Source of the DNA: Candidatus Dechloromonas phosphorivorans
Lineage (GTDB): Bacteria; Pseudomonadota; Gammaproteobacteria; Burkholderiales; Rhodocyclaceae
Assembly: GCA_016709495.1 (NCBI GenBank)
Contig: JADJMS010000015.1
Span: forward strand, 11,981 to 75,980
Length of the DNA: 64,000 nt
Direction of reading: 5' to 3'
The notes beneath the pieces were generated by a model. The model was not told the DNA's origin, searched no databases, and saw only the letters and a list, made by a program, of their open reading frames with translations. Shown here one piece after another: positions 819-57,488 of this stretch. The translations under genes were made by a program, and so were the position numbers. Numbering within the stretch: the stretch's first letter is position 1; every line of letters starts with the position of its first letter.

Positions 819-1828
819 TTATTTCCTGGTACACAGGTGCAAACCGAGGCGCAGGAACTCTTCCCAAATGTTTCCACGACCGATGCCCTTTGGCTAGCAG
901 GTCGATTTTTCCCGCATGTTGCAGCGCCGTTTCAAGTGTTACGGTCGACAGCCGTTGCAAGGGCTTTTTTTATCGGCGTTGCGCGTGGCCCCCAAACCTT
1001 GGCATCCTTGAGCAGCGCGTCGATCGGTTTGCCGGCATCCAGGCCATTACGGATCACGGCCAGCGCCCTGATTTCCTCACTCATGGCCCAAAGCACCAAG
1101 GGGGGCGCCTCGCCTTCATGCATCAAACCATTCAGCGTGCGTGACAGGCGTGCCACGTCGCCAGCCAGCAGCGCCTCGCGCAAACCTTCAATGTCATAAC
1201 GCGCAACGTTCAGTACCGCCTCACGAACCTGTGTCGTGCTGAGTTCGCCGGGCGGGTAAAGCAGGCCAAGTTTCTGGATTTCCTGATGCGCGGCGAGCAA
1301 ATTGCCCTCAACGCGTTCAGCAATGAATTTCAGGCTTTCCTGATCGGCGCTTTGTTTCTGGCGGCGCAGGCGACCGGCGATCCAGATCGGTAAATCGGCC
1401 AGCGCCGGCGCCATCAGCTTGATGGCGACGCCGGCATTGACCAGCGCGGTGAACCAGACCGCCTTTTCCTCGCGCCAGTCGAGTTCGGGCAAGGTGATCA
1501 GCAGCAGGTTGTCCATCGACAGGTTCTGGCACCACTGCTGCAATGCGGCGCTGCCTTCCTTGCCCACCTTGCCGGTGGGAACGCGCAAATCGATCATTTT
1601 TTTATCGCCGAATAGCGACATGTTGCCGCCGGCAGCCAGCAATTGGCCCCAGTCGAATTGCGGCAGAACCGTCATCACCTCGCGCTCGCTGTAACCCTGC
1701 TGGCGAGCCTTGACGCGAATTGTGTCGGCAGCTTCGATGACCAGCAGCGGCTCGTCGCCGTAGAGCACGTAGAGCGGGCGCAAGTCACGTTCGAGGTGGG
1801 CGGCGAGTTGTTCGCCCTTGAGCAACAT
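819..1828 (-). CDS. holA: DNA polymerase III delta subunit, with a 1-nt frameshift near the 3' end (~935)
   Basis: ORF 932..1828 (MLLKGEQLAAHLERDLRPLYVLYGDEPLL...) is HolA-like. The C-terminus continues in another frame (ETALQHAGKIDLLAKGIGRGNIWEEFLRLGLHL) to the TAA at 819-821. The start overlaps the lptE stop (TAATG). Confidence 0.85.
937..949 (+). repeat. Over-represented oligomer, GTCGAC variant: TGTTACGGTCGAC
   Basis: Lies at the 3' end of holA. The minus strand encodes AVDRNT. Confidence 0.6.
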
Positions 1829-2364
1829 TACTCGGCTTCTTCGAGGTCGGGATTTTTCGGTTTGATGATGCTCAGGCGGCGCATGATCTGGTTGACCAGA
1901 TCATTGTTCATGTCGCGCCAGAGCAGGCCTTCTTCAAGATCCTTGGCGAGAATGTTTGAGTCATCAAAGCTAATGTCCCGCGACAGGTTGATTTCGTTCG
2001 GCGGCACCAGCACCAGCCCCTTGGCGTTAACCATGCGGAAGGTGTAATTGAGTTGCAAGCGATATTCGCGCACCCGGCCTTGGGCATTAACGCTGAGAAT
2101 GGTCTTCTGGCGGCTATCCGCCAATTGCTGGAAGGTGGCATCGGCCATTTTGGGGTCGTCGACCAGTTCGCTGCTGCCGGCTGCATTGATATAACGTTCG
2201 AGCCAGATACGCACGTCAGCGGTTTCCGGCAGCGCGATATGCATTGTCTTGTAAGGCAGGTTGCCACTTTTCGTTCCGCGCAACTGAAAGCCGCAGCCGG
2301 CCAGGGCTAGCGCAGGAAGAACAGCGAGCAGACGGCGGCGGGAAAGGGGCGCGGTGAGTGGCAT
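1828..2364 (-). CDS. lptE: LPS-assembly lipoprotein LptE (RlpB)
   Basis: Lipobox LALAGCGF, about 178 aa, in the conserved leuS-lptE-holA position. Confidence 0.85.
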   Translation of the reverse strand: MPLTAPLSRRRLLAVLPALALAGCGFQLRGTKSGNLPYKTMHIALPETADVRIWLERYINAAGSSELVDDPKMADATFQQLADSRQKTILSVNAQGRVREYRLQLNYTFRMVNAKGLVLVPPNEINLSRDISFDDSNILAKDLEEGLLWRDMNNDLVNQIMRRLSIIKPKNPDLEEAE

Positions 2365-2372
2365 GCTGAGCC

Positions 2373-4993
<2,621 letters not shown>

Positions 4994-5049
4994 TCAAAAA
5001 TCTTGAAGTAAGCCCGGAATTATACCGGTTGAACCTGTTTGGAGAGGCG

Positions 5050-5925
5050 ATGGGGGCGATGCTAAGAAGTAGCTTGGTGATTTTTGGACTGTTTTCGGCG
5101 TGGACCGCATCTGCCGCACCGAATGCGGTAGTTGATGCATTGCAGGCGCCGGCTTGGCTCGAACGCGGCGAGCGGCGTTTACCGCTGGTGCCCGGAATGG
5201 TGCTCGAAAACCGGGATCGCGTGCTGACCGGTAATGGGGCGCGCGCCATTATTCAACTGGCCGATGGCAGTGCCGTCAAACTTGGCGAAAACGTCAATGT
5301 TGCGGTTAACGCCATGAAACAGGAAAAAAATGGCTCATTTGCCGCCGCGCTCGATGTGGTCAAAGGTGCGTTTCGCCTGACGACCGATATTTTTCGCAAA
5401 TATCAAACCCAGCGTGCGATCAATGTGCGCACCGGTACGGTGACGATTGGTATTCGCGGTACCGATCTTTGGGGTCGTTCTGATCACGAACGTGATTTCG
5501 TCTGCTTGCTGGAAGGCAGGATTGCGGTTAGCCACCCGATGGGCGAGCCGACCGAGTTGAACGAACCTTTGCAGTTTTATGGTGCCAACAAAGGCCAGGC
5601 ACCGGGGCCGGTTGCCTTGGTGGACAAAGAGCAGCTGGCCAAGTGGGCGCTGGAAACCGAATTGCAAAATGGAGCCGGCGTGCAGCAGCAAGGTGGTCGC
5701 TGGGGCTTGCGTTTCGGGCAATACGACAAGGAAGAAACGCTGGCCTTGTACGACAAGCTAAATGCCTCTGGTTACGCAGCCAAGATCAAGCCGCTCCGCG
5801 TGGCGGGCGGCTACTCTTACGAAGTGCGCCTGGGACTACTGGTGACCGAACGCGAGGCGCGTGCGCTAGCCGACAAGTTAACGCGGGACCTGCATGTACC
5901 CGCGCCGAACCTTAGTCGGCTTTAG
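5050..5925 (+). CDS. FecR-domain protein with a C-terminal SPOR (peptidoglycan-binding) domain
   Basis: Internal ATG gives signal peptide MGAMLRSSLVIFGLFSAWTASA. There is a FecR-like core, and the C-terminus WGLRFGQYDKEETLALYDKLNASGYAAKIKPLRVAGGYSYEVRLG is SPOR-like. Confidence 0.6.
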   Translation: MGAMLRSSLVIFGLFSAWTASAAPNAVVDALQAPAWLERGERRLPLVPGMVLENRDRVLTGNGARAIIQLADGSAVKLGENVNVAVNAMKQEKNGSFAAALDVVKGAFRLTTDIFRKYQTQRAINVRTGTVTIGIRGTDLWGRSDHERDFVCLLEGRIAVSHPMGEPTELNEPLQFYGANKGQAPGPVALVDKEQLAKWALETELQNGAGVQQQGGRWGLRFGQYDKEETLALYDKLNASGYAAKIKPLRVAGGYSYEVRLGLLVTEREARALADKLTRDLHVPAPNLSRL

Positions 5926-5935
5926 CGTCGCCCGG

Positions 5936-6277
5936 TCACGCCGCTTTTTTTAGCGGGTTGAGGTTTTCCCAGTTGCTTTGCCAGAGCCGGTAAGTGCTTT
6001 GCGCTGCGATCATCGAGAGCAGCGACATCCGGGTCTGGTGCTGCCACATCCATGACAGGCGAGGTGCTTGCGTCAGGCCGTAGCTGGGTGTGCAACCGAC
6101 TTCTTCTTCGACAATGCTCAAAAAACGTTTAACCGCCAGACCCCAATAGTCGGAGCCTTCAGGTTTGCCGGTGATAAGCTCAGCCTCGGAGGCGGCGCGG
6201 CGCCAGAGTTTTAGGGCCAGTTCATCGCTGATACCGGCTTTCCTGGCGATCCAGGGGAGAATTTTAGGTGCTTGCAT
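5936..6277 (-). CDS. Hypothetical protein (113 aa)
   Basis: Internal ATG at 6277 is preceded by AAGGAG. Product begins MQAPKILPWIARKAGISDELALKLWRRAASEAE... I recognise no family. Confidence 0.5.
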   Translation of the reverse strand: MQAPKILPWIARKAGISDELALKLWRRAASEAELITGKPEGSDYWGLAVKRFLSIVEEEVGCTPSYGLTQAPRLSWMWQHQTRMSLLSMIAAQSTYRLWQSNWENLNPLKKAA

Positions 6278-6345
6278 GCTGTTACTCCTTATTACTCTGT
6301 GGGGGTATCCACTTGCTGTTTTGATTGCCTCTTTGGGCAAAAGTT

Positions 6346-6461
6346 TTGTGCGGTGCACAATTTGTTTTGGGAAGTATACTTCCGGCTCAAACGCTATTGT
6401 GTGAAATATTGTGCAATTGAATTGCTGCGTTGCACAATAACAACAGATTGGTCTGACCAAT
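6346..6461. promoter_or_regulatory. Cluster of four perfect palindromes in the divergent promoter region upstream of uvrD
   Basis: TTGTGC-GGT-GCACAA (6346-6360). GGAAGTATACTTCC (6370-6383). TATTGTGCAA-N13-TTGCACAATA (6407-6439). ATTGGTC-T-GACCAAT (6447-6461). Confidence 0.5.
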
Positions 6462-6516
6462 TTCCGCTTCTGCTATTTTTGGGGCGGTATTTTATATCTT
6501 TAGTCGTATTTTTTGA

Positions 6517-8673
6517 ATGCCTATGACTGATTTGCTTGCCAATTTGAACGCACCACAACTGCAGGCTGTGACCTTGCCGCCGGTCCATGGGCTGATCCTG
6601 GCCGGTGCCGGCAGTGGAAAAACGCGGGTGTTGACGACGCGTATTGCCTGGCTGATGGCGACCGGGCAGGTCGGGCCGCATGGCATTCTGGCCGTGACTT
6701 TCACCAACAAGGCAGCAAAGGAAATGACGGCACGGTTGGCGGCGCTGGTGCCGATCAATACGCGTGGCATGTGGATAGGTACTTTCCACGGCCTATGCAA
6801 CCGCCTGTTGCGCGCGCATTACCGCGAAGCCGGGCTGCCGCAGACTTTTCAGATTCTCGATTCGGCGGACCAGCTGGCTATGGTCAAGCGCCTGCTGAAG
6901 AATCTCAATGTGGATGACGAAAAATACCCACCGCGTGAACTCTGCCACTTCATCAATGCGCACAAGGAACAAGGAGTCCGTGCCGGACAGGCTGAGGCTT
7001 ACGACAATTACACGCAAAAACGCGTCGAGCTGTATGCCGAGTACGAGGCGCAGTGCAATCGTGAAGGGGTGGTCGATTTTGCTGAACTACTCTTGCGCTG
7101 CTACGAATTGCTGCAGCGCAATGAACCGATCCGCAAACATTACCAAGCGCGCTTCCGCTACATTCTGGTTGATGAAGTACAGGATACGAACAAGCTGCAA
7201 TACGCCTGGTTGCAACTGATTGCTGCCGATGGCGCAAAGATTTTCGCGGTGGGCGATGACGATCAGAGTATTTATGCCTTCCGGGGGGCTGAAGTGGGCA
7301 ATATGCGCGATTTTGAGCGAGATTTTGCCGGCCCCAACGTGATCCGTCTGGAGCAGAACTACCGTTCTCAGGGCAATATTCTGGCGGCGGCCAATGCCTT
7401 GATCAAAAATAACCGTTCGCGGCTTGGCAAAAATCTGTGGACCGATGCCGGTGATGGCGAACCGATCCGCGCTTTCGAAGGCTATTCCGATATCGACGAA
7501 GCGCGCTTCATCGTCGAGGAAATCCGCGAACTGGTGCGTGAAGGGGTTTCGCCAACGCAGATTGCGATTCTTTATCGCTCGAATGCCCAGTCGCGCATTC
7601 TGGAACACGAACTGTTCGCCAAGGCAGTGCCCTACAAGGTTTATGGCGGTTTGCGCTTCTTCGAGCGTCAGGAAATCAAGCATGCGCTGGCTTATTTGCG
7701 TCTTTTGGGTAATCCGGACGACGATACCGCTTTCCTGCGCGTGGTGAATTTCCCGACCCGGGGCATTGGTGCGCGCTCGCTGGAAAGCTTGCAGGCGACA
7801 GCACATCAAACAAATTGCAGTCTTTACAACGCCGCCGCTTCATTGAGTGGCAAGGCGGGCGTGACGGTGGGTGGTTTTATCCGCCTGATCGAAACCTTGC
7901 GTCAGGAAACGGCGAATTTGCCCCTGCCGGAAATCGTTGAGCACATTGTCGAAAAATCAGGGCTGGCCCAGCATTACCGGATGGACAAGGACGGCCAGGA
8001 GCGGCTGGAGAATCTTGACGAACTGATCAATGCAGCCGCCAGCTTTGTTGACGATGACGGCGTGGTGATGGGCCATCAGGCCGAAGGCGGCGCGCTGGTT
8101 TCCTTCCTGACCCACGCCTCGCTGGAAGCGGGTGAACATCAGGCCGGCGAGGGGCAGGAAGCGGTGCAATTGATGACGGTCCACTCGGCAAAAGGCCTGG
8201 AATTTGATGTGGTGTTCATCAGTGGTCTCGAGCAGGGGCTTTTCCCACACGAAAACTCGGTGGCGCAAGGCCAGGAGGGGCTGGAGGAGGAGCGTCGGCT
8301 GATGTACGTGGCCGTGACCCGGGCCCGCCAGCGCCTTTATGTCTCCTGCGCGCAAACCCGCATGCTGCATGGCCAGACGCGTTACTGCATGCCGTCGAAT
8401 TTCCTCGACGAAATTCCCGAAAATCTGCTGCTCAAACTGAACAAGAAGTCGGCTCCCGCGCCAACTGCCACCCCTGCGTTTGGTGGCGGCTATTCAGCCG
8501 AGCCGGTGGCTGGCGGTTTGCGCATCGGACAAAGTGTTGAACATGCGAAATTTGGTCTCGGCGTCATCGTATCGACCGAAGGGCGCGGCGCCGATGCGCG
8601 CGTGCAGGTCAATTTCGGTGGCAGCGGCATGAAGTGGCTGGCGCTGGAATACGCCAAGCTGACGCCGGTTTAG
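6517..8673 (+). CDS. uvrD: ATP-dependent DNA helicase II (UvrD)
   Basis: 718 aa with Walker A AGAGSGKT and UvrD/Rep motifs (TFTNKAAKEM, DEVQDT, VGDDDQSIYAFRGA, TVHSAKGLEF). Confidence 0.92.
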   Translation: MPMTDLLANLNAPQLQAVTLPPVHGLILAGAGSGKTRVLTTRIAWLMATGQVGPHGILAVTFTNKAAKEMTARLAALVPINTRGMWIGTFHGLCNRLLRAHYREAGLPQTFQILDSADQLAMVKRLLKNLNVDDEKYPPRELCHFINAHKEQGVRAGQAEAYDNYTQKRVELYAEYEAQCNREGVVDFAELLLRCYELLQRNEPIRKHYQARFRYILVDEVQDTNKLQYAWLQLIAADGAKIFAVGDDDQSIYAFRGAEVGNMRDFERDFAGPNVIRLEQNYRSQGNILAAANALIKNNRSRLGKNLWTDAGDGEPIRAFEGYSDIDEARFIVEEIRELVREGVSPTQIAILYRSNAQSRILEHELFAKAVPYKVYGGLRFFERQEIKHALAYLRLLGNPDDDTAFLRVVNFPTRGIGARSLESLQATAHQTNCSLYNAAASLSGKAGVTVGGFIRLIETLRQETANLPLPEIVEHIVEKSGLAQHYRMDKDGQERLENLDELINAAASFVDDDGVVMGHQAEGGALVSFLTHASLEAGEHQAGEGQEAVQLMTVHSAKGLEFDVVFISGLEQGLFPHENSVAQGQEGLEEERRLMYVAVTRARQRLYVSCAQTRMLHGQTRYCMPSNFLDEIPENLLLKLNKKSAPAPTATPAFGGGYSAEPVAGGLRIGQSVEHAKFGLGVIVSTEGRGADARVQVNFGGSGMKWLALEYAKLTPV

Positions 8674-9946
8674 GCTTTGTTGGCGGCGATTGAGGCTTGC
8701 AGGAAGTAATGCATCGCCTGCTCGCGCAATTTGGCGTTTAGTTCGTTTTCCCCCGCCTGCCCAATACTGGCATGCATAGCGGGGGCGATTTCCAGAAAGC
8801 GGGTGACCAAACGCGGATCAAAGTGAGTGCCGGCATCTTTTTCGATAATGGCTAGCGCTATCTCCAGCGCCATTGGCTCCTTGTAGGGGCGACGAGAAGT
8901 GAGTGCGTCAAAGACATCGACGATGGCGAATATGCGCGCATTGAGCGGTATTTCTTCACCCTTCAGGCCGCGCAGATAGCCTTTTCCGTCGAACTTTTCA
9001 TGATGCCCTTCAATGACTTCGCGGGCGCCCTGTAGCCAGTCCGAGTCGGCAATGATGTCGACACCGAGTGCGACATGGGTGCGCATGATGGTGAATTCAT
9101 CTTCAGTCAGCTTGCCCGGCTTGAGCAAAATATTGTCGGTAATGCCGATCTTGCCGACATCGTGCAGAAAGGCACCGAGAATCAACTGACGCATGGCATT
9201 CGGTGCCAGTCCAGTCGCTTCACCGAGCTTGATGGCATAAAGCGTGACGCGGAAATTGTGGTCGCCGGTATCCGAATCGCGTTTGGCGATGGCCGCACCA
9301 AGAACTGAGGCGATTTCAAGGTTGCCCTTGAGGAGTTCATTCGAGAAGCGAACGACATCGCGGTTAAGGGAAATAATGACCGGATAAAGCAGCAGGCTGG
9401 TGGCAAGGACGGCAATCAGCACCGCAGCCAGCGTGTGCCAGAGTTGCTTGCTGAATTCTTCCATTACGCTACGGTCGACGACGAAAACACCCTCAAAAAA
9501 TCCGGCGTTGCCGCCCAATTTACTGGGCAGCGGTACAAGAACCTGAACCACGGTGTCTTCGCCGATAAAATATCTTTCGTAGTGGTGGAGTTGTCGAGCG
9601 GAAATTGATGCTTGTATTGTTTCAGTTGATTCTCAATATGCTCGTATTTGGGATTGACTGCTTCAACAATGCGGGTTTTTTCGCGATCATAAATTTCAAT
9701 GACCACGAAATTATTGCGGACAAAAGATTCAGCTTGCGCGCTGAGTTTGGCCAACTCTGCCGGGCTACGTTTGCCGGTATCCAGTCCCTCTGGCGCAAAC
9801 TCGGTGGCTTGCGAGGCAGCCAAGGCGACAATAGCATCGTCGATTTTTTCTGCTTCGATGTAATAAGCGACGCTACCGATCAAAAACGACACAATCAGCC
9901 AAGCGGCAACCAGTCGGCGGAGCACGATGCGGTGGATAGAAATCAT
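8670..9946 (-). CDS. Membrane-anchored HD-GYP-type c-di-GMP phosphodiesterase (frameshift ~9590)
   Basis: ORFs 9464..9946 (N-terminal TM plus periplasmic-like region) and 8670..9551 (HDVGKIGI ... HHEKFDGKGYLRGL) join across one frameshift. Its stop overlaps the uvrD stop. Confidence 0.75.
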
Positions 9947-10004
9947 GAGCTAATGATACGCTCAGGGTTTGACGATAAATTACGAAAAACTTAAGGAGAT
10001 AATC

Positions 10005-12930: not shown

Positions 12931-12933
12931 AGC

Positions 12934-12947
12934 ATTACGGTCAACGC
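12934..12947 (+). repeat. Over-represented oligomer copy: ATTACGGTCAACGC
   Basis: Lies 4 nt after the parA-like stop. The hairpin ATCGGCTAAAAATTTAGCCGAT follows. Confidence 0.8.
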
Positions 12948-12965
12948 GCAAAATCGGCTAAAAAT

Positions 12966-14387
12966 TTAGCCGATAGACCCATCCTGCAGCAAGGCTTCGG
13001 CAGACTGGCTGGTTTTCCACCAATTGATAAATTCCGGCAGGTCGATTGCCTTCGAATAAAAATAGCCTTGCGCGAAGCGGCAGCCGAGCGACGAAATAAT
13101 GCCGAGGATTTCTGCCGTTTCAACGCCCTCAGCAATGACGCTCATTTTGAGTCGGGTCGCCAACTGGATTACCGAGGTAATAATCTCGCGCGCCTTCTCC
13201 GATTCGGCTACCTGACGGACGAACATCTGGTCGATCTTTACCTCCTGTACCGGCAGGCGCTGCAGGTAACTCATGCCTGAATAGCCTGTCCCGAAGTCAT
13301 CGATCGACAGGCGCAAACCGAGTTTGCGCATGCGGTTCAACACATCCATGACTTGCCAGCTTTCCTCAACCATCATGGTTTCGGTAATTTCGAGCAGGAA
13401 CTTTGAGGGGGCAATATCCCAGGTCGCCAACGCCTGCCCAATCATGTCGGGAAGTTCCGTGTCGAGCAGGTCGTTGGCTGACAGATTGATCGAAAGAACA
13501 ATGTCGATGCCTTGCTCGGCTAGTTGCAGCTGAATCTGTGTTGCCTGTTGCAGCAGCCAGCGATTGAAGGTCTGGCGCAAGCCAAGGCGATCAATTGCCT
13601 CAAGAATGATCGGCGGCGAAACCCATTCGCCATTGCTGCGCTGCCAGCGGAGCAGCGCCTCGGCACCGGTGCAACGGCCGGTAGTAATTTCGATTTGAGG
13701 TTGCAAATATAGGGCAAGCTCGCGATTGTTGTGCAGTGCCTGACGCAGGTCATTCTGCAGGCCTTGCTGGTCGTCGCTGTCGACTTCCATCTCCGGTTTA
13801 TAGCTTTGAATATCGGCGTTGCCATGTTCGGCAAACAACCGGGCAATACGTGCTGACTGCACCAGAAACAAGGGGTCGCTGCTGTCATCCGGCCATTGTG
13901 CCGAGCCGATGGCCAGACGCGGCAAATGGCTGAGTCCATCGAATTTTTCAATGCTGGCCAGGCCGTCGCGGAGGCGGATCATCGCCAGCGTGAGCGCCGA
14001 ACTGCTGATCAAATTGGGCAAAATAATCAACCATTCGCGCTGGCTGATCGTGTAGATCCGGTCTTGTGAGCGCAGCAAAGAGCGCATCTTTTGCGAAGCC
14101 TCGATGCGCAGTTTGTGTACCGAGTCCGCCGAGCGACGGAAAAGCTTTGCATCTGGCACTACAGCCAGCGCAATGACACCCAGTATGCGATTGGGCTGAT
14201 TGTCACGCATCAATTGAGTGAGATCAGCCAGTGCACTGGCCATGCGTGGCAAGCCGGTAGTCTGGTCGATACGGTCAGTTTGACGTGTCGATAACTTGGT
14301 GTTTTGTTCAGGCAAGATAAAACTCGGCGGGGTCAATGCCGTAGGCGTTGGTTGGCAAGGCTTGGGTGATGCGGTATTCGCGGCCAT
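12966..14387 (-). CDS. EAL-domain c-di-GMP phosphodiesterase with a degenerate GGDEF-like N-terminal domain
   Basis: GAEALLRW, EITETMMVEE, LSIDDFGTGYSGMSYL and KIDQMFV motifs are present. The true start may be the internal ATG at 14243, because 14308-14387 overlaps the upstream HD-GYP gene. Confidence 0.8.
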   Translation of the reverse strand: MAANTASPKPCQPTPTALTPPSFILPEQNTKLSTRQTDRIDQTTGLPRMASALADLTQLMRDNQPNRILGVIALAVVPDAKLFRRSADSVHKLRIEASQKMRSLLRSQDRIYTISQREWLIILPNLISSSALTLAMIRLRDGLASIEKFDGLSHLPRLAIGSAQWPDDSSDPLFLVQSARIARLFAEHGNADIQSYKPEMEVDSDDQQGLQNDLRQALHNNRELALYLQPQIEITTGRCTGAEALLRWQRSNGEWVSPPIILEAIDRLGLRQTFNRWLLQQATQIQLQLAEQGIDIVLSINLSANDLLDTELPDMIGQALATWDIAPSKFLLEITETMMVEESWQVMDVLNRMRKLGLRLSIDDFGTGYSGMSYLQRLPVQEVKIDQMFVRQVAESEKAREIITSVIQLATRLKMSVIAEGVETAEILGIISSLGCRFAQGYFYSKAIDLPEFINWWKTSQSAEALLQDGSIG

Positions 14388-16739: not shown

Positions 16740-16779
16740 TTTTGTTTCCAGCAGTGAAATCGTGCAGATATTTTAAAGC

Positions 16780-16793
16780 GTTACGGTCAACGC
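16780..16793 (+). repeat. Over-represented oligomer copy: GTTACGGTCAACGC
   Basis: Overlaps the stop codon of the LysR gene (minus strand). Confidence 0.8.
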
Positions 16794-17680
16794 CTGAATT
16801 TGCTCGATTTTTTCAATTCGTCGAGAAACCAGGCGAGTGCCTTGCCGACATTGCGGCTGCGCCAGGCGATGTGGGCGGGCATGGGCTGGCCTGGTTCGGC
16901 GAGTTCGCGTTGTATCAGTCGCCCGGCGGCGATTTCCGGGTCGGCCAGCCAGTGTGGCAGGTGGCCGACGCCGAGTCCGGCAACCTGGGCACTGGCCTTG
17001 GCGGCCATGTTGGGTACACGCAAGGTGTCCTGGCCTTCGAGCAGGCCGATGGTGCGGGCGGTGAGTTCCTGCGAGGTGTCGGCAATGACGACGGCGCGAT
17101 GGCGGCGCAATTCGCTGTTGGGGATCGGATCGGCGTAGGCGGCGAGCGGGTGACTGGGTGAAATTGCAAAGATCAGTTGCGAGTGGCCGAGCAGGCGGCT
17201 CATCATGCCGCTGCGTGCCGGCATGTCGCCGGGGGCGCCGATCACCAGATCAGCGCGGCCCGTCGCCAGCGCATCCCAAGTGCCGCCGAGCACTTCGTAA
17301 ATCAGTCGAATCTGCGTGCCGTGGCCAATTTCATAAAAGCGTTCGAGCAGCGGGAAAAGGCGTTCGACCGGAATCACCATGTCGATGGCGATACGTAGTT
17401 CCGCTTCCCAGCCATGGGCGATGCGCTGCACCCTGCGTTCCAGTTCGTCGGCGGCGCGTAGCAGGTGGCGCCCCTCGTCGAGCAGGGTTCGGCCGGCTTC
17501 ATTGAGCGTCGCGCGGCGGCCTTCTCTGATGAAAAACTGAACATCCAGCTCGCACTCCAGTTTGGCTATGGCATGGGACAGCGCCGAAGGCACGCGATGC
17601 AGTGCGCTGGCGGCGGCCGTGAAACTGCCGTGGCGGTCAATGGCGTCGAGAATGTGCAGAAGATCGAGAGAGATTTTCAT
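16787..17680 (-). CDS. LysR-family transcriptional regulator
   Basis: The N-terminal HTH (FTAAASALHRVPSALSHAIAKLE) and the LysR substrate-binding domain are present. Divergent from the pirin gene. Confidence 0.9.
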   Translation of the reverse strand: MKISLDLLHILDAIDRHGSFTAAASALHRVPSALSHAIAKLECELDVQFFIREGRRATLNEAGRTLLDEGRHLLRAADELERRVQRIAHGWEAELRIAIDMVIPVERLFPLLERFYEIGHGTQIRLIYEVLGGTWDALATGRADLVIGAPGDMPARSGMMSRLLGHSQLIFAISPSHPLAAYADPIPNSELRRHRAVVIADTSQELTARTIGLLEGQDTLRVPNMAAKASAQVAGLGVGHLPHWLADPEIAAGRLIQRELAEPGQPMPAHIAWRSRNVGKALAWFLDELKKSSKFRR

Positions 17681-18490: not shown

Positions 18491-18514
18491 TTATTAATTC
18501 AAAGGGAAAACACC

Positions 18515-19917: not shown

Positions 19918-19961
19918 ACGATCGTTGGTTTGATCGCTATTAAAAAAACTGTTGTTTTTTT

Positions 19962-19975
19962 GCGTCGACCGTAAG
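19962..19975 (-). repeat. Over-represented oligomer, GTCGAC variant (plus strand reads GCGTCGACCGTAAG)
   Basis: Lies 45 nt downstream of the tandem-REC gene stop. Confidence 0.55.
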
Positions 19976-20112
19976 CGTTTGAACGAAGTCTGATCTGGGT
20001 CAAGTGTTGTTCGAATAAATCTGGAAATCGGCTGGCCGACGTCAATTCCCTGTGGCATAGTGCTTAAAAATGTTGCGACGCAACAATAATTTTATGTTTC
20101 AAGGGGAACGCC

Positions 20113-24382: not shown

Positions 24383-26016
24383 GGCTGACTGACCTCAAAC
24401 CAGAACACGGTGGTCAGCAAGGGGGCCAGCGAGCGGCTGCTCACGGCGCTTTTCCAGTCGTTGCTCGTGGCGCCAACGCGGGCGAAGCGCAAGCCTGAGC
24501 CGTGTGATGCCAGTGTCTGGTAGCTGCCGAGTTGGGTGGCTTGATGATTTGTTACGGTCAACGCGGTTTTGAAGCTGGAAATATCTTTTTCTTCAACAAA
24601 AATCGGGGTTTTGCTGGCTGCCAGTTCGCTCAAGTCAAACTTGTCGAGCTTCCCGTAGTGCCGATGCGCCTGAGCGGTGAGGATGGGAAGCATGGCCGGT
24701 TGCGGGCCATCGAACATGGCGATCGACTGTCTACGACCCAACTCAATGACCGAGGCGGGTACCGCATTGATGCCCAGTGCCGGGAAGACGCCGGCGAGTA
24801 GCGCAATCCAATAAACTGCCGGTGCGGCGAGTGTGTTAGCAAGTGCACGCTCATGCCACCAGGCCCAGCCCAAATAGATGGCCGGCAAAACCAGCCAATA
24901 CCACCCGCCGAGTTGAAACCAAAAAGCGAAGCCAGCCAGCACACCGCCCACCCCCATGGCGAGGAGCATGCCGAGGCGGAAAGGCCAGCGCACTCGCACT
25001 TGCGGCAGGGTCATGGCGAGGAAAATCGATAAGGGAACCAGCGAGCCAATCAGGTAGCGGTCAAAACTTTTAATGAACAAAAACGGCAGGAAGGTCGCAA
25101 GAAACCAGAACAGGGCGAATCGCGTTTCCCATGTTCTGCTGCGCTGCTGCCAGGCGGCAACTGCAAAAACAAAAACCCAGGGCAGTGCCACATTGAGCAG
25201 GCCGAAGAGAATGCCGGGCGAAAGATTGAAGAACTGGCGCGACTCCAGTTCATCGGCCAGGACCAGATTGGTCGCTTCCGGATAAAGCGCCCGCACAACA
25301 AAAAACCAGGGCAGGGCGAGCAGTGCCCAGAGTAGCCCGTGACCAAGCAGCGCTTTCCAATGCCGCCCAAGGTGGGTGCCGCGTAACTGGCCGCTGAATA
25401 GCAGCGCCAGGCAGCCACCGCCGAAAACCAGCGCAACTATCGGCCCTTTGGTCAGAAAACCGGCAACCAGGAGCAAGCTTGTTACGGTCAACTGGAAAAA
25501 ACGTCGATTTTTTAGCCAAACCAGCAATGACCAGAATGCCGCAGTAGATAAAGCAGCCACCGGCATGTCGAGCATGAAACGCCGGCCTTCGGAGGCGATG
25601 CCCAGGCAGCCGAGCAGAATGCAACCGGCGATCAGGCCGGGTTCCGTTTTGCCGGAAATCCGGCGGGCGATACCGGCGGCCGCGATGATCAGCAAGGCTG
25701 CCGCGAGAACGCCGATGATACGGGCGCTGACCAGTGAAATGCCAAAAATTTCGTAACTGCTGCGCCCTACCCAATAGAGCAGCGGCGGTTTGCGGATGCG
25801 CGGCGCGCCGTCGAGGAAGGGAACCAGCCAGTGGTTGCCCTCGATCATTTCCATGGGCGTGCGCAAACCGAGAAAAAATTCATCCTTGCCGGTCAAGCCC
25901 GTCGCTTCCCAAATGCCGGGGATCAAAACGGCAAGGGCCAGCAGAAAGAGCAGCAGGGTTTGGCGGGCGGGGGAAAGGGCGAGCATGGGGCGGGATTTTA
26001 ACCCGCTTAGTCGCAT
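24379..26016 (-). CDS. ArnT/PMT-like glycosyltransferase (GT39/GT83 family, polytopic membrane)
   Basis: 545 aa. GKDEFFLGLRTPMEMIEGNHWLVPFLDGAPRIRKPPLLYWV is the typical ArnT-like N-terminal loop, and there are many TM segments. Confidence 0.75.
   Translation of the reverse strand: MRLSGLKSRPMLALSPARQTLLLFLLALAVLIPGIWEATGLTGKDEFFLGLRTPMEMIEGNHWLVPFLDGAPRIRKPPLLYWVGRSSYEIFGISLVSARIIGVLAAALLIIAAAGIARRISGKTEPGLIAGCILLGCLGIASEGRRFMLDMPVAALSTAAFWSLLVWLKNRRFFQLTVTSLLLVAGFLTKGPIVALVFGGGCLALLFSGQLRGTHLGRHWKALLGHGLLWALLALPWFFVVRALYPEATNLVLADELESRQFFNLSPGILFGLLNVALPWVFVFAVAAWQQRSRTWETRFALFWFLATFLPFLFIKSFDRYLIGSLVPLSIFLAMTLPQVRVRWPFRLGMLLAMGVGGVLAGFAFWFQLGGWYWLVLPAIYLGWAWWHERALANTLAAPAVYWIALLAGVFPALGINAVPASVIELGRRQSIAMFDGPQPAMLPILTAQAHRHYGKLDKFDLSELAASKTPIFVEEKDISSFKTALTVTNHQATQLGSYQTLASHGSGLRFARVGATSNDWKSAVSSRSLAPLLTTVFWFEVSQP
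24550..24564 (+). repeat. Over-represented oligomer copy: TGTTACGGTCAACGC
   Basis: Lies inside the ArnT-like CDS, in frame. The minus strand encodes ALTVTN. Confidence 0.8.
25480..25492 (+). repeat. Over-represented oligomer copy: TGTTACGGTCAAC
   Basis: Lies inside the same ArnT-like CDS, in frame. The minus strand encodes QLTVTS. Confidence 0.8.
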
Positions 26017-31460: not shown

Positions 31461-31480
31461 TTGGCACCCGAAGGTGCCAA
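31461..31480. terminator. GC-rich hairpin between convergent dnaE and the chemoreceptor gene (non-canonical flanks)
   Basis: TTGGCACC-CGAA-GGTGCCAA. T residues precede and an A-run follows on the plus strand, so it is not a textbook U-tract terminator in either direction. Confidence 0.45.
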
Positions 31481-31498
31481 AAAAATAGCGCAAATACA

Positions 31499-31513
31499 GC
31501 GTTGACCGTAACA
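31499..31513 (-). repeat. Over-represented oligomer copy (plus strand reads GCGTTGACCGTAACA)
   Basis: Lies between convergent dnaE and the chemoreceptor gene. It sits in the loop of ACAGCG...CGCTGT. Confidence 0.8.
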
Positions 31514-33820: not shown

Positions 33821-33958
33821 AGTGAATTCCTTGTATTGATTTGATCTGGTTTTGGGGGTTCTTGGAATTTAAACAAGAGGCCCGGTGCTGTCAAATTGCG
33901 TATGTCCGGCTTCCCCTGTTGCTGGGGGAAAATACCAAAAAATCAGGCATTTTTTGTG

Positions 33959-33971
33959 GTTGACCGTAACA
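33959..33971 (-). repeat. Over-represented oligomer copy (plus strand reads GTTGACCGTAACA)
   Basis: Intergenic, between the peroxiredoxin and PepSY genes. Confidence 0.8.
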
Positions 33972-41169: not shown

Positions 41170-41170
41170 G

Positions 41171-44100
41171 ATGGAATCTGCCGACAACGATCTGCCCATA
41201 CGCCAACGCCTGCAACACTGGGTCGAGCACTTGACGCATGTCTTGCCGGCTCAGGCGCCGATCCGCGATTTCGTGCATCACAACACCCTGCATGGCTTTC
41301 AGCACTTGCCTTTCCCGGAAGCGCTGGCGGCGGTTCACCGTCTGACTGGTGCGGCGACTTACTGGCCGGAGGCACGCTTTCAGGCGGCCTATGCGGCGGG
41401 GCGAATTTCGCCGGCGGATTTGCGCGAGGCTTTTGCCGATTCAGCCATTGAAGGGCTTGATGCGCCCGTCCTGCGTGCTTTAACGCGGCGTGATGTACTG
41501 CTCGCCAGTCTGCTGATGCCGACCGCGCAGGGCGAGCGGCGACTGGACTGGAATGAGCGCGAAGGGCTATTGGCTCGCGATAAAATTTTTGGCCGTTGTC
41601 GCGAGTTGACCGCAACAGATGAGGTTCCTGCCGGAATCTGGCAGGAAAGCGCCATGCAGAACTGGATTGCGCTCTGTGCCCGGGTGGGAAATGAATGGAC
41701 GCTGCGCAGCCTGCTCGAACATCTGACTGGCGAGGATGTGCTGGAACGGGTGCGTACTATTTTGCAGCGCCACATGGCAGCGCATCTGGATTTGGGTGTC
41801 GCGGCCTGGCGCAATCCGGCGCAGGCAGAGGGTTTTTTTGCTGCATGGCGAGCCAGTGCCGGTCTCGATGTGGCGTGGGAACTTGATGAGTTGCCCGGCA
41901 TTCATGACGAAATAGCCTATCTGCCGGCTGATCCGGTTGATGTGCTGGTCGATGAGTTGGCGCGGCTGATTCCGGATGAAGATTTGTGGCCGGGATATCT
42001 CGAGCGTCTGGCGCTTGAACTGCCGGGCTGGTCCGGTATGTTCCTTTGGCGCGACCAAAATCCGGCACGCGGCGATGGTACGCCAGTGGATATGCTCGAC
42101 TATCTTGCCGTGCGAGTTCTGCTCGAACGTCTGTTGTGCGAAGACCTGACCCGTCGCCTGACGGGCGCCGCAATGGAGTTCGATGAACTGCGCGGCTATT
42201 TCGCTGCCAATTTGGCCGAATTCCATGTCCGCGATGCCTTGCAGGGCGTGCCGTTGAGCGAAGACCTGCAGCACCGCGCCACCCATTTGCTGGCCTCGGG
42301 TGAGGGTATTCTGGCAGTCGACGACGATTGGCAGTTGCTGGCAGAAGAAATCTGGCAGCAACAGTGCGTGTCCGACTCACGGCAGCGCGCTGTTGCGCTT
42401 TACGAATTGCTGCGCGGCCTGGAATTTACCGCGGGCGATGCCGCCACCTTGACGGCTGAAGATGCGCAAAGCCTGCTGGAAATCGCCGCCAGCCTTGATC
42501 CTCTGGCCCGTGGGCAACTCTGGTTGCAGGCTTACGAACGCCATTATCGCGAAGAATTGTTCAGCGCCCTGACCGCCAATCATGGTCGCCATCCAGCACC
42601 CGGTTCGGTATCGGCGCAGGTCATCATGTGCATGGATGATCGCGAAGAAGGCACCCGTCGCCATCTGGAAGAAATCGCGCCGACGGTTGTCACTTACGGT
42701 GCGGCGGGATTTTTTGGCATCGCGATGTACTGGCAGGGACTGGATGATCCGACGCGAAGCGCGCTCTGTCCGATTGTCGTGCGCCCTGAACACCTCGTGC
42801 GCGAGCAGGCGTGCGATGCCGAGCTCGGCGAACAGCACGCGCAACGTCACGAAAACCGCTTGCTGTGGCGCGAGCGCCTTTATCAGGGAACCCGCAATGG
42901 CGTTCTGGCAGCCCCCGTGCTGACTGCACTGGCCGCACCCACCGCTTTGCTGGCACTGCTCTCCAATACCCTGGCTCCGGCCTGGATAGCAGATGCCGTA
43001 AGGCGTTGGCGAAGTCAGTATGAACGTCCGGTCACCACCCGTTTGCAACTGACCGCCGAAGCCGCTGCCGCCCCAGCCAGCGCCGATATGCCGCGCGATG
43101 GGTTTGACGACAAGGAGCAAGTCGAGCGCGTTGAGAACTTTCTGCGCAGCATTGGTCTGACGCAAAATTTCGCCCCGTTGATTCTCTTCTTTGGCCACGG
43201 CTCAGGCAGTCGCAATAACCCGCATCTCTCAGCCTACGACTGCGGTGCCTGCTCAGGTAAGCACGGCGGGCCGAACGCACGTGTTTTCGCAGCGATGGCC
43301 AATCGCCCGGCAGTGCGGGCCGGTCTGCTGGCGCGCGGGCTGGAAATTCCCAGCGGCGTGCTGGTTCATTGCCGCCGAGCACAATACTGGTGATGACAGC
43401 GTCGAGTGGTGTGACCTCGACGTTGTCCCGCCTGAGGTGGAAACGGCGCTCGATACGCTGGTCGGGCAGCTGGCCGGTGCGTGTCGTGCCGATGCTGCCG
43501 AGCGCTGTCGCCGCCTTGCTTGAGCACCGCCAGGCGCCTTCACCGTGGCAAGGGTTTGAGCACGTTCGTGGACGTGCCAACGACATTTCGCAGGCGCGGC
43601 CAGAACTCGGCCATGCAACCAATGCGGCGGCCTTTGTCGGGCGGCGGGAAATGAGTCGCGGTTTATTTCTTGATCGCCGGGTTTTCCTGATTTCCTACGA
43701 TCCGCTGGCTGATTTGAGCGGACAGATTGTCGAAAGCATACTGCTGGCGGTTGGCCCGGTTGGCGCCGGCATCGCCCTCGAATACTATTTTTCGACGGTC
43801 GATAACGAGCGCTTCGGCTGCGGCTCGAAGATCACCCACAACATCACCGGCCTGTTTGGCGTCATGGAGGGGGCGGATTCCGATCTGCGCACCGGCCTGC
43901 CCTGGCAGATGGTTGAAATTCACGAGCCGATGCGCCTGCTGGTTGTTGTCGAGCAGACACCGGCGGTGCTCACTGAAATCCTCGCGCGCCAGCCGGCTTT
44001 GCAAGAGCTGATCGGTAATGCCTGGATAATTTTGGCGGCAAAAGACCCGTTGACCGCAACAATTCAACAATATTGCCCGCGCCGGGGCTGGTTGCCGTGG

Positions 44101-45727: not shown

Positions 45728-47227
45728 TGGGCGGTTTGTCAGAAATTTTCTGGAACGAACAGACGGGTCTGCCGCTGTTGCTGATGCTGCAATTGCTCCC
45801 CTTGCTGGGTGCTTTGCTCGTTCTGGCCCTGGGCGAGCGTTTGAGCGCCGTGCTGGTCGGCAAAGTCTTTGCGCTGGCTGAATTGTTGCTCGGCATCGTC
45901 GCCGTCAGTCGAATCAACCCAACTTTGCCTGCCCTGCAACTGGCCGAACGTTTTGAGCCGTTGGCCTATCATGTTGCGGTCGACGGCCTGAGTATGGTCT
46001 TTTTATTGCTCACCGCCTTGCTCACCTTTTTGATGACCCTGTACGGCATGAGCCGCGGCATGATCTCTCCGGGCCGGCTGTTCGCCGTGCTACTGCTCGC
46101 TGAAGCCGGGCTGGTCGGCATGCTGGTCACAGTCAATGTCGCCTGGTTTGCCGCGTTTTTCGGCGCTCGAATTATGGGCGGTGACTTTTCTGCTTAGGCG
46201 CTGGGCTTCTTCACGCGCCGAAATTCAGGCCTTGGCCCGTTTCGTTCAATATCAGGCTTTCGGCTGGGTGCTCTTTGCCGCTGGCTGCCTGGTGCTGGGC
46301 TGGGGCCATGCCGATGCCACCGGCGGTTTCTGGAGCTTTGATCTCTTTGATCTTGCCGAGCACCTGACCTCTGGCAAATACCAGACGGCAGCTTTCTACC
46401 TTCTGTTCTACGGCCTGGCCGTTCGCACCCCGCTTTTCCCGCTACATGGCTGGTTGCCGAACATGGCGCAACATGGACTGATTGCGGTGGCGCCGGCGCT
46501 GATGGTCGGCGTCAAGGTCGGTATTTACGGCATGCTGCGCTTTGTCCTGCCGCTGACGCCGGATGCCGTTCAATACTGGCAGCCCTACGTCGTCGGCTTC
46601 GCCATGGCCGGCGTTTTCTTCACCGCAGCGCTCGCCTTCCAGCAAACCAACCTGCGCCGTCTGCTCGCTTTTGCCGTGGTCAGCCACACCAGCCTGCTGG
46701 TCATTGGTGTTTTCAGCCTGCACGAATCGGGCATTCAGGGGGCGGTTCTGCTCGCCGCCAACTTCGGACTGGCGGTGACCGGCATGTGGTTCATCGTCGG
46801 TTTCGTCTTCCGCCGCACCGGTACGACAGAGTTGAACGAACTCTCCGGCCTCTTCGAGCGTATCCCTTTTCTCGCCATTGCCTTCCTCAGCTTTGGTCTG
46901 GCCATCGTCGGCATGCCCGGTACGCCGGGTTTCGATGCTGCTCACCTGATTCTCGAAGGCTCTATCGACAGTTTTGGTGCCTTGCCGACGGTTGCGACGG
47001 CGCTCGGTAACGTCGCTGCCGCCGGTTTTCTGCTCTGGGCTTTTCAGCGCGCCTTTCTCAGTCAGGCACGGCAGGGCGGCCATGATGTCGATAAAACGCT
47101 GCCGATGGAATATGTCGTCTGCGGCATTGCCCTGGCCGCCATGCTGGCCATCGGCTTCTTCACCGAGCCCTGGCTCTATCTGACAGAAACGGCCAGTCAG
47201 GCGATGGCGGCGAGGTTTCATCGATGA
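45727..47227 (+). CDS. Divergent NuoM/NuoN-like antiporter subunit (PF00361), frameshift in the T-run 46156-46160
   Basis: Has VDGLSMVFLLLTALL and LAVRTPLFPLHGWLPNMAQHGLIAV, where the Lys position is Arg and AHxEAP is degenerate. TAATG overlap upstream and ATGA overlap downstream. Confidence 0.8.
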
Positions 47228-55849: not shown

Positions 55850-56229
55850 GACTGGGGTTCTACCTGACGGATAAGGGCTTTAAGGTCAGTTACAAGGAAA
55901 CGACTGATATGGCTGCCATCAAGCGCCGACTCAAGGTGCCGAAAGATGTCGAGTCGGTGCCTCCGGCGGTGGTGGCTGGTTTGTTTGTCGAAGGGCCCGC
56001 CGACGCCGAGGACGTTCGCGCGCTGCTGCGCGATAAACCCACGGCGCGGGGGATTGCTGTGCCGGGTTTGCCGCGTGGTGCGCCAGGGCGCGAGCAGTCT
56101 AATCCAACCTGTGAAACAGCCTGCACGACACTCGACAATACGACAGGTGAGCGCGATATACGCCGTGAATTATTCAATACCATGCTGGTCAAGCCGGATG
56201 GCACGACCAGTATCTGGGCGCGCCACTGA
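55850..56229 (+). pseudogene. 5'-truncated second copy of the DUF411 gene (no signal peptide or N-terminal Cys motif)
   Basis: Homology to copy A begins at ...GFYLTDKGFKVSYKET. It encodes SVPPAVVAGLFVEGPADAEDV, where copy A has SVHTAVVGGYFVEGHAYAEDI. The C-terminal frame is intact to the TGA at 56227-56229. The upstream part of ORF 55762.. has no homology. Confidence 0.6.
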
Positions 56230-56390
56230 ACTGGTTCAAAACCCCAGTTCGTTAAACATGTTGCTTGCCCAGGCAAGGTCCTCATCACGCGCTTGCGCAT
56301 CGTAGGTTTGGCGCACCGTTTGCTGGATCAGCCCATCGCCGCGAAAGCGGAAACTGGTATTGATCCGTGCCAACTCCATCGGTTCTGCGC
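55850..56390 (+). repeat. Copy B of the ~540-bp diverged direct duplication
   Basis: Collinear with 54236-54775. Confidence 0.75.
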
Positions 56391-57488
56391 GACTCAGGAC
56401 ATAGCAGGTGCTCTCGGGTAACTGTTTTTCCGTCGCCAGACCGCTGGCGCGAGCCGCAATCTGACGTGCGGCTATGCGGCCCAGTCGGGCGGCCAGTTGT
56501 CCGGTTTTTGGGTAATGACCGAATAGTTGCGAGACTTTGTCGATGGCATCGCCGACGATATAAACCTGCTCATCGCCAAGAATGTTAAGGTTCACCGGGT
56601 CGACCGCCGCCCAGTTGCTGCCCTGGCCGACCAGAGCATTTTGCCAGAGGATGTCGGCAGCTTGCTGCGGTGGCATGAGGATGGCGTCGGTAAAATCGAC
56701 AGTGTCGAAGTCGGTGACGATCTGCTTCTTGAAGGGATCGACCGATTTGACCTTGGCCTGCGGCATATAGGTGACCTGGTCGCGGTAGCTATCGCGGAAG
56801 ATACGGTCGAAACTCATTACTGCAGGGTTGGGGTCAAGCACAATCAAGCGCCCCTTGATTTGCTTGCTCTTCATCCACCAGGCAATCAGCCCGGCGCGCT
56901 CATAGGGGGCCGGTGGGCAACGGTAAGGCATGGGCGGGATGGTCATTACCAGAGCGCCCCCGCTGAAACGGTGCAGGCGTTCTTTCAGTGCGACGTGCTG
57001 TGTCGCATCACTGAAGGCCGAGGCGTGGTTTTTGCGGCAAAAATCGATACTGTTACGGTCAACGCCAAACCAGGCCGAAAAATCTTCACGAATACCGGCT
57101 GCAATAATCAGCCAGTCATAAGCAAACTCGCCATCGCTGGTCGAAACTGTGTGGCGACTGCGGTCAATCGCACCCACTTCGGCACGGACAAAGCGATAAC
57201 CGGTGCTGCGGGCGGCTGCTTCATAGCTGTGGCGCAATAAGGTAGTGTCCGCCAGACCCACCAGCCAGCGGTTGGAGATCGGGTGTGACCAAAAACTTTC
57301 CTGGCGTTCGATCAGGGTGACTTCCAGTTGTGGCGCGCTGGATCGCAATTCTTTGGCCGCCGCCAAGCCACCCCAGCCGCCACCGATGATCAACACGCGG
57401 CCTGCTGAGGCTTGTACGGCCAGCAAGCGGGGCTGGCTGAGAGACTTGCAAGCCCGATCAGGCCGCCAAGCAGACTTCTTCGTTTCAT
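56236..57488 (-). CDS. FAD-dependent pyridine nucleotide-disulfide oxidoreductase, FccB/SQR-like, with a Tat signal (frameshift ~57450)
   Basis: The ATG at 57488 gives MKRRSLLGGLIGLA, a twin-arginine signal. The frame then shifts to ...QPRLLAVQASAGRVLIIGGGWGGLAAAKEL, a Rossmann GxGxxG motif. Confidence 0.65.
57051..57065 (+). repeat. Over-represented oligomer copy: TGTTACGGTCAACGC
   Basis: Lies inside the FccB-like CDS, in frame. The minus strand encodes GVDRNS. Confidence 0.8.

Follow-up and report, generated by a model that had tools for sequence, protein, structure and literature searches.

Why should one short word recur in unrelated genes and spacers along a single stretch of bacterial chromosome, on both strands and with the same flanks? 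The question is raised by 64,000 nucleotides (hereafter the window, in whose coordinates all copies are given) of Candidatus Dechloromonas phosphorivorans, family Rhodocyclaceae (assembly GCA_016709495.1, contig JADJMS010000015.1, positions 11,981 to 75,980). A first-pass annotation made from the sequence alone had singled out the 11-mer TTACGGTCAAC as the centre of a highly over-represented word resembling the DNA uptake sequences (DUS) of Neisseria and the uptake signal sequences (USS) of the Pasteurellaceae. We found that TTACGGTCAAC forms the centre of a larger composite element, about 35 bp long, that has the layout of a USS and an inner string in common with it. Judged from sequence comparison, the word is probably, with ample room for doubt, the core of a candidate USS-type DNA uptake signal in Azonexus/Dechloromonas (Rhodocyclaceae), outside the two families in which such signals are known.

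The window contains seven exact copies of TTACGGTCAAC, on the plus strand at 12935, 16781, 24552, 25482 and 57053 and on the minus strand at 31501 and 33959. The annotation had reported eight while giving seven positions; these were right to within 1-2 nucleotides (nt), with several coordinates off. The two GTCGAC variants that it placed at 937 and 19962 are real and lie at 939 (+) and 19964 (-). Missing from its list were two TTGCGGTCAAC variants, at 41605 (-) and 44049 (-), and degenerate copies at about 5100, 5300 and 9469. Analytic Markov models of order 1-5 predict 0.01-0.08 exact copies against the 7 found. When up to one mismatch is allowed, 14 sites are present, compared with 0.55 +/- 0.67 (maximum 3) in 100 dinucleotide-preserving shuffles of the window; the frequency is thus far above oligonucleotide expectation, a comparison that the annotation had proposed. 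Among all 11-mers and 12-mers of the window TTACGGTCAAC is the most repeated, and it is also the top 11/12-mer in an Azonexus metagenome-assembled genome (MAG; L114). The mismatched sites concentrate at two purine positions, giving the core TT-R-CGGTC-R-AC.

The repeated unit turned out to be longer than the 13-15-mer first proposed. A profile was built from 49 non-identical instances aligned from the window and related contigs, and it describes a functional unit of about 35 bp, TG-TTRCGGTCRAC-GSC-n-AAAAW-nn-GS-nn-AWTTTT. Its 5' part comprises T at -1, G at 0, the 11-nt core and G-S-C at +12..+14, which bears out the conserved TG upstream and GC downstream noted earlier. An A-rich first AT tract (segment 2) follows at +16..+20 (67-88 % AT), then G/C at +23/24 (82-92 % GC) and a second AT tract, AWTTTT (segment 3), at +27..+32 (78-98 % AT). 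Both tracts stand 3' of the core, with their centres about 11.5 nt apart, or about one helical turn. No conservation was seen upstream of -4 or downstream of +33 in this alignment. Split genes in the window hint at assembly indel errors, by which the lengths of A/T runs could be affected, but not the cores.

The flanks were scored independently of the core (flank score, maximum 16; a score of at least 13 has a background probability of 0.008). Of 16 window matches to TTRCGGTCRAC, 13 reach this score, where 0.13 would be expected. We then scanned the 15-mer TGTTACGGTCAACGC against one genome each of 185,579 species, and at least 113 stretches matched. Among the matches listed, 104 are chance hits in unrelated organisms, mostly one per genome, and have no AT tracts (mean flank score 9.1, SD 2.0), while nine are in Rhodocyclaceae-type MAGs and have them (mean 13.9), five of these coming from one MAG, STC_64. 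Among the matches listed, core and flanks occur together only in this clade. A flank-specific pattern matched at least 120 metagenome stretches, from which we assembled a set of 615 kb of non-redundant contigs, each found via one seed copy. In this set 85 further perfect, non-seed cores repeat the whole profile, with 91-99 % AT at +27..+30. Flank-validated copies comprise 58 perfect and 28 one-mismatch cores, and in 22 of the latter the deviation is limited to positions 1-2; since mismatches are confined almost wholly to these two positions, the constrained core is R-CGGTC-R-AC. The commonest variant of the metagenomic copies has C at position 1. At position 3, about half of all copies have A, as do 9 of the 11 window members.

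The firm copies in the window are as follows (CDS, coding sequence).

937..970, +: core TTACGGTCGAC; segment 2 weak, segment 3 = T7; flank score 12; overlaps the last codons (VDRN) of holA (932-1828, -).
12933..12966, +: core TTACGGTCAAC; flank score 16 of 16, the best in the window; in the 35-nt spacer of a convergent ParA-like gene (12298-12930) and EAL gene (12966-14387).
16779..16812, +: core TTACGGTCAAC; flank score 14; spans the stop codon of a LysR-type regulator gene (16787-17680, -).
19943..19976, -: core TTACGGTCGAC, then A7...T7; flank score 14; intergenic, 25 nt past a response-regulator gene (19117-19917).
24550..24583, +: in the CDS of a PMT_2 glycosyltransferase (24379-26016, -); sense strand A-L-T-V-T.
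25480..25513, +: second copy in the PMT_2 CDS (24379-26016, -).
31480..31513, -: spacer of convergent dnaE (27956-31456) and a methyl-accepting chemotaxis protein (MCP) gene (31529-33136).
33938..33971, -: between the 3' end of a PepSY_TM gene (34051) and the start of ahpC (33820).
41584..41617, -: G variant TTGCGGTCAAC within dabA; sense strand L-T-A-T.
44028..44061, -: G variant TTGCGGTCAAC in the 3' part of dabA.
57051..57084, +: in the CDS of a flavocytochrome-c sulfide dehydrogenase-like protein (56236-57426, -); sense strand V-D-R-N; flank score 13.

Less complete or ambiguous matches are listed separately.

5298..5331, +: probable degenerate copy; one core mismatch (TTGCGGTTAAC), good AT tracts, flank score 15.
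9467..9500, +: probable degenerate or variant copy, CTACGGTCGAC; flank score 14.
5079..5112, -: possible decayed copy; two core mismatches (ATGCGGTCCAC), flank score 13.
45972..46005, +: ambiguous and left out of the membership count; sense-strand TTGCGGTCGAC, encoding the conserved V-A-V-D-G of an antiporter subunit.
47443-47476 and 60975-61008: ambiguous, not counted; sense-strand TTGCGGTCGAC, V-A-V-D.
51189 and 63508: ambiguous, sense strand, weaker flanks; TTGCGGTCAAC (VAVN) and TTGCGGTCGAC (VAVD), respectively.

How the copies came to stand where they do can be read from those within genes. The two copies in PMT_2 and the two in dabA were aligned with motif-less orthologues of relatives, and the alignments run codon for codon without a gap; this is the test that Redfield et al. 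applied to the origin of the USS (PMC1626085). At 24550 the LNNA of the motif-less orthologues has become LTVT without a gap, and at 25480 their ERRRTGWLTLA has become KNRRFFQLTVT with no indel. In dabA, the copy at 41584 grew from a TTGACCGC (LTA) that was already there, through changes such as PV to KI, and the copy at 44028 differs from Quatrionicoccus by VV to II, C to K and GAL to ATI, again with no indel. The core and AT tracts of the coding copies thus arose by point substitutions, several of them non-synonymous, and the element is not a mobile insertion.

The copies show no polarity, a property that the annotation had named as a further possible refutation. GC skew is positive along the entire window, which lies in one replichore, and the 11 firm copies divide into 6 on the plus and 5 on the minus strand; of the 119 copies that lie on metagenome contigs 4 kb or longer, 49 % are on the G-rich strand (p = 0.85). 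Each of the six coding copies in the window runs antisense to its gene, while in the metagenome set sense and antisense copies are about equally frequent (56:53, as assigned by a gene-strand classifier only 73 % accurate on these contigs). We treat the antisense pattern in the window as a small-sample effect.

There is, by contrast, a preference in position. Of the 11 firm copies, five are situated entirely or in part outside coding sequences, compared with a non-coding fraction of 9 % for the window (binomial p ~0.002, computed by hand from the map of open reading frames, ORFs). A sixth gene-end copy covers the last holA codons, and each of these six has a stop codon no more than 80 nt away. 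The remaining in-gene copies are in frame and encode LTVT, LTAT or VDRN; the annotation had read LTVT and VDRN correctly. It had also described the word as enriched near terminators, of which the nearness to gene 3' ends holds; no copy of that kind in window 1-20000 lies in a predicted terminator. This region has 28 terminator-like sites where 25.6 are expected, so there is no excess. One copy, at 12935, has both AT tracts within a perfect 10-bp hairpin, ATCGGCTAAA-AA-TTTAGCCGAT (window 12946-12966), and the other copies have none of this kind. Folding of 11 copies on both strands gave no common fold, with inconsistent structures and z-scores mostly near 0, and the Rfam and tRNA scans of the window found nothing. 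A structured RNA or intrinsic terminator is therefore ruled out: there is no Rfam match, no common fold and no overlap with terminators (1-20000). A phage-borne element is ruled out as well, the flank-specific pattern having only 2 matches in 2.9 million viral contigs against at least 120 metagenome stretches.

Several explanations of an over-represented word can be weighed against these data. A small mobile repeat (miniature inverted-repeat transposable element, repetitive extragenic palindromic [REP]/REPIN sequence or similar), spreading by copying and insertion, would be short, numerous, often intergenic and of strong consensus, as the element is. It is contradicted by the gapless coding alignments, by the want of any conservation outside -4..+33, by the near absence from viral contigs, by the 49-instance alignment, in which there are no terminal inverted repeats or target duplications, as the first reading had maintained, and no palindrome, and by the lack of a shared hairpin; we hold it to be extremely unlikely. 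A polar signal of chromosome architecture, read by FtsK or RecBCD in the manner of FtsK-orienting polar sequences (KOPS) or Chi, would likewise be an over-represented asymmetric word. Known KOPS and Chi words are 8 nt long and strongly skewed towards the leading strand, whereas the element is about four times longer and unskewed with respect to GC skew, both in the window and in the metagenome set, and this explanation, too, is very unlikely. Chance, codon usage or paralogy has its best case in the sense-strand TTGCGGTCGAC matches at 45974, 47445, 60977 and 63508, which encode a V-A-V-D conserved in orthologues without the motif; because the V-A-V-D/N peptide is so conserved, these four and the match at 51189 were treated as coding coincidences. 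The argument covers the ambiguous copies only. The genes and spacers that house the 11 firm members are unrelated, and the coding members were made in place, which disposes of the paralogy that the annotation had named as a possible refutation; the firm members exceed the Markov expectation more than 100-fold, and they have AT tracts of a non-coding type. For the main set we consider this explanation practically untenable.

What the element does resemble is a USS. The two USS types are Hin, AAGTGCGGT, and Apl, ACAAGCGGT. In the Pasteurellaceae, the USS consists of a 9-bp core followed on the 3' side by two AT-rich segments with spacings of about one helical turn; the segment nearer the core passes from A's to T's, and the other, whose centre lies 12 nt beyond, is mostly T's (PMC1626085). 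USS occur at ~1 copy per kb without orientation bias, prefer non-coding DNA with many copies in genes nonetheless, have perfect copies far outnumbering mismatched ones, arise by mutation and not by copying, and come in subclade-specific types (PMC1626085). All of these traits except the density are found in the element: a very strongly conserved asymmetric core with two weaker 3' AT segments that run from A's to T's, in a unit of ~30-35 bp as in the USS, no orientation bias, an excess in non-coding DNA with many coding copies, an origin by point mutation, and variants by subclade. The resemblance extends to the letters. The extended USS, AAAGTGCGGTCAATTTT for the Hin type and AACAAGCGGTCAAATTT for the Apl type, share GCGGTCAA (Helsem et al., PMC12616744), and this string forms positions 3-10 of the element's TGTTGCGGTCAAC variant, with the AT tracts on the same side. 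The G variant TTGCGGTCAAC contains it as well, i.e. the part common to eHin-USS and eApl-USS. The chance of two such motifs sharing an 8-mer is ~0.005 by a rough post-hoc estimate. Thus, the earlier view that the word matches neither DUS nor USS is wrong for the USS, and the resemblance to uptake sequences that it proposed holds for the USS in layout (core and two phased AT tracts) and in the GCGGTCAA of its G variant, with the reservations on density and terminators given below.

The likeness to the DUS of Neisseriaceae (GCCGTCTGAA and its dialects, with the minor pilin ComP as receptor) is of a more general kind: both orientations, coding copies in particular frames, dialects and betaproteobacterial hosts. 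In sequence the element has no similarity to the DUS, whose inner core is CTG. DUS are continuous words of 10-13 nt without flanking segments (PMC12616744, PMC1626085), whereas the element has two AT tracts, and DUS often form inverted pairs in terminators. The REP sequences, bacterial interspersed mosaic elements (BIME) and repetitive IHF-binding palindromic (RIP)-type repeats of enterobacteria are also short and concentrated at the 3' ends of transcription units, and some of them join a specific core with a protein-induced bend. REPs are, however, imperfect hairpin-forming palindromes found only outside genes, and the element is non-palindromic, has no shared hairpin and stands in frame within genes.

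A number of observations weigh against an uptake signal. The density is low: the window has ~14 copies, or one per 4-5 kb, when the degenerate, well-flanked copies (5100, 5300, 9469) are included, the metagenome contigs have one additional copy per 6-9 kb, and the overall figure of about 1 per 4-9 kb, or 110-250 per Mb, is an extrapolation from 11-15 copies in 64 kb and the metagenome fragments, on which any genome-wide count rests. At 0.1-0.25 per kb the element is 4-9 times rarer than the signals of classical USS and DUS genomes (~1 per kb) and falls below 300 per Mb, the working cut-off of a USS-receptor study for species with presumed active specificity (PMC12616744). Inverted pairs, a common arrangement in terminators for DUS/USS, are rare: no real pair was found among 210 copies, and one was seen in a relative (L125). 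Likewise, none of the copies in window 1-20000 lies within a predicted intrinsic terminator, a common location for DUS/USS. A GC-rich spacer (C-GSC-n) puts both AT tracts ~6 nt further 3' than in the USS. The commonest window variant reads ACGG where the inner core of the USS has GCGG; the USS global consensus is ANNNGCGGT, with inner GCGG(T), which the element's G variant has, and about half of the copies have A at position 3. Finally, we found no reports of natural competence for this group in the literature. The element further differs from the USS in its 5' part, TGTT versus AAGT or ACAA (consensus upstream ANNN), and in its host, a betaproteobacterium of the Rhodocyclaceae and not a member of the Pasteurellaceae. 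A literature search for uptake sequences linked to Rhodocyclaceae, Dechloromonas or Azonexus returned nothing, the word occurring there only as a chance primer sequence.

Two further explanations compete with uptake. The copies might be a site array for an abundant intracellular DNA-binding protein (nucleoid-associated, gyrase-type or chromosome-organising) that recognises the core and uses the phased A/T tracts as a bend, and selection on chromosome structure or on gene-end insulation, rather than uptake, would then maintain them. Bent DNA bound by such proteins typically has phased A-tracts, 100-250 per Mb is typical of their site numbers, some sites are kept at orthologous positions across lineages, and the copies are enriched at gene 3' ends and in convergent spacers; E. 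coli REP/BIME and RIP elements are likewise enriched at gene 3' ends. Such sites are normally relaxed in consensus (argument in PMC1626085), while here perfect cores far outnumber those with one mismatch. About half of the copies stand in genes, where they were made at an amino-acid cost, and the 8-nt identity and the layout in common with the USS would be left unexplained. By eye, the core does not fit the IHF consensus, WATCAANNNNTTR, in either orientation. We consider an array of this sort unlikely, and less likely still a by-product of some other sequence-biased process (mismatch repair, gene conversion, or a modification or defence site) with no role in uptake or binding. A point-mutation origin and lineage variants indeed need only a bias, not necessarily uptake. 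Yet no repair or conversion bias is known to us that yields a composite motif of 35 bp including two AT tracts set apart from each other, genomes tend to be depleted of restriction-type sites and not enriched in them, and the resemblance to the USS would be coincidence, at the 8-mer chance given above. Compared by eye with the consensus sequences of IHF, FNR/CRP, parS and the DnaA box, the core had no convincing fit to any, and these were rejected as candidates.

For an uptake signal of the USS type, the following mechanism can be proposed. A DNA receptor at the cell surface, for which a type IV minor pilin like ComP or ComN/PpdA is the most plausible candidate, would bind the asymmetric R-CGGTC-R-AC on double-stranded DNA, and the two 3' AT tracts, about one helical turn apart, would ease the bending or kinking needed for passage through the outer membrane. 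Fragments bearing the motif would be preferentially taken up and recombined; point mutations that create or improve it would therefore be over-transmitted (molecular drive). Copies would build up where they are tolerated, in gene-end spacers and permissive coding stretches and in both orientations, and each lineage would drift to a variant of its own, a 'dialect'. Such biased uptake and recombination would account for the origin in place, the amino-acid cost, the strong consensus and the lack of polarity, and equally for the excess at gene ends, the lineage variants and the decayed copies. The layout and the inner string shared with the USS raise the question of convergence versus a shared or transferred receptor. 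That the signal is read by a minor-pilin receptor homologous to the ComN/PpdA candidate of the Pasteurellaceae, by ancient inheritance or by receptor transfer, is a possibility that we put forward tentatively and regard as rather doubtful; recognition of self-DNA of the USS type would in that case extend beyond the Pasteurellaceae to Rhodocyclaceae of the environment and of wastewater. Type IV pilin genes seen in contigs of the clade are a PF00114 pilin (L233) and an orphan prepilin-type gene (L168 5211-5864, present in L177 too; 213-217 aa), which has a histidine-kinase-like gene on one side and a Na+/H+ exchanger on the other. The orphan prepilin was dropped as a receptor candidate, since its family is not clade-specific but occurs widely in Rhodocyclaceae and Propionivibrio.

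We next turned to the host and its relatives. The genes of the window fit a Rhodocyclaceae chromosome (holA-lptE-leuS, uvrD, dnaE, ahpC, dabAB, a sulfide dehydrogenase-like gene and metG), and its DnaE shares 98-99 % identity with the DnaE of Azonexus sp. MAGs and 86-90 % with those of Dechloromonas, Azonexus and Quatrionicoccus isolates. Look-ups of exact proteins with AhpC and P0024 gave no match. Relatives were sampled over about 23 kb around dnaE each, and are listed with their DnaE identity to the window.

L114, Azonexus MAG: DnaE 98 %, GC 56 %; 2.5-3 copies per 10 kb, some at orthologous sites; TGTT-R-CGGTC-R-AC type.
L115-117, Joint Genome Institute (JGI) metagenomes: DnaE 91 %, GC 57 %; density and orthologous sites as in L114; TGTT type.
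L125, GCA_964583695: DnaE 90 %, GC 61 %; five variant copies C(C/T)RCGGTCAAC-CSG-AAAAAA...TTTT, including one inverted pair.
L120 and L123, Quatrionicoccus australiensis and Azonexus hydrophilus: DnaE 89 %, GC 64 %; 21 and 17 CGGTCRAC sites, respectively, versus about 7-8 expected.
L124, Azonexus MAG: DnaE 90 %, GC 64 %; a decayed copy only, at the orthologous dnaE-MCP spacer.
L118, L119, L121 and L122, Azonexus IMCC34842, D. denitrificans, D. agitata and D. aromatica-like: DnaE 86-89 %, GC 62-66 %; no copy.

The element is thus found in Azonexus/Dechloromonas lineages of ~56-61 % GC, and no intact copy was seen in the five relatives sampled at 62-66 % GC. Its variants follow lineage. The TGTT type also occurs in at least four other species-level MAGs (STC_64, flintriver bin.14, Azonexus MAG.149 and a Dechloromonas MAG). 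At the site 31480..31513, the element stands in the same position in L114, L115 and L125 and is decayed in L124; at this dnaE 3' site L115-117 have TTGCGGTCGAC where the window has TTACGGTCAAC. The copy at 33938..33971 is kept in L114 and L115-117 and absent in L118, L120 and L124. The decayed copy of L124 (13472-13563, TGCTACGGTCAGGccgAAAAAgtggccAAAAT, orthologous to window 31480-31513), in a relative otherwise free of copies, suggests loss of the signal in that lineage. In Quatrionicoccus the dnaE-MCP spacer (L120 13451-13527) has a short GGATCGAGGATC-type tandem repeat instead of the element. The inverted pair of L125 (8710-8754) consists of two variant copies that have A6/T6 tracts in common (CCACGGTCAACccgAAAAAAcgccaTTTTTTccgGTTGACCGCAG); it is the sole inverted pair seen, and it recalls the DUS/USS pairs of Neisseria and Haemophilus.

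In the cultured species represented by L120 and L123, CGGTCRAC is 2-3x over-represented, and an AT tract is found at +27..+30 of these sites (68-87 % AT versus 36 % background), the same position as segment 3 in the window. Judging from these profiles, CGGTCRAC may be a reduced variant of the element in those species. Counts of k-mers made no over-represented word evident in the high-GC relatives, and the L120/L123 signal appeared only in the targeted profile.

If the element is an uptake signal, it may point to a third group of bacteria able to recognise their own DNA, and uptake signals would not be peculiar to two families of animal-associated bacteria, the present lineage being free-living and abundant in wastewater treatment. 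Its variants (TGTT, CC/CT and reduced) could then test the ComN/PpdA receptor hypothesis, a question that dates back to the 1970s, and, were the receptor of that kind, would provide an independent data set for tracing the USS receptor through co-evolution. Frequent recombination within the lineage would be implied for bacteria important for phosphorus removal, and a practical route to their genetic tractability would be opened.

Some features of the window stand apart from the element. In several cases one gene falls into two ORFs that are in different frames: leuS, dabA (undivided in relatives, as an ORF of 1012 aa) and two antiporter subunits (window 2373-4837, 41126-44199 and 44196-47227). 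The pirin gene (17785-18375) is about 40 aa shorter than in relatives. These split or short genes look like assembly indel errors or recent pseudogenes. At 44001-48000 the AT skew drops to -0.34, probably because of the T-rich codons of the plus-strand Proton_antipo_M membrane-protein genes that fill this region. Beside dnaE, a cluster of PMT_2, BNR_2 and unknown genes (22686-27044) occupies the place where L115-117 have GmrSD and HEPN defence genes (7213-8951), which marks a small variable island. An ORF of 148 aa at 15723-16169, whose match to a CHAT domain is limited to the C-terminal part, is probably a gene fragment; L121 encodes a CHAT protein of 1804 aa.

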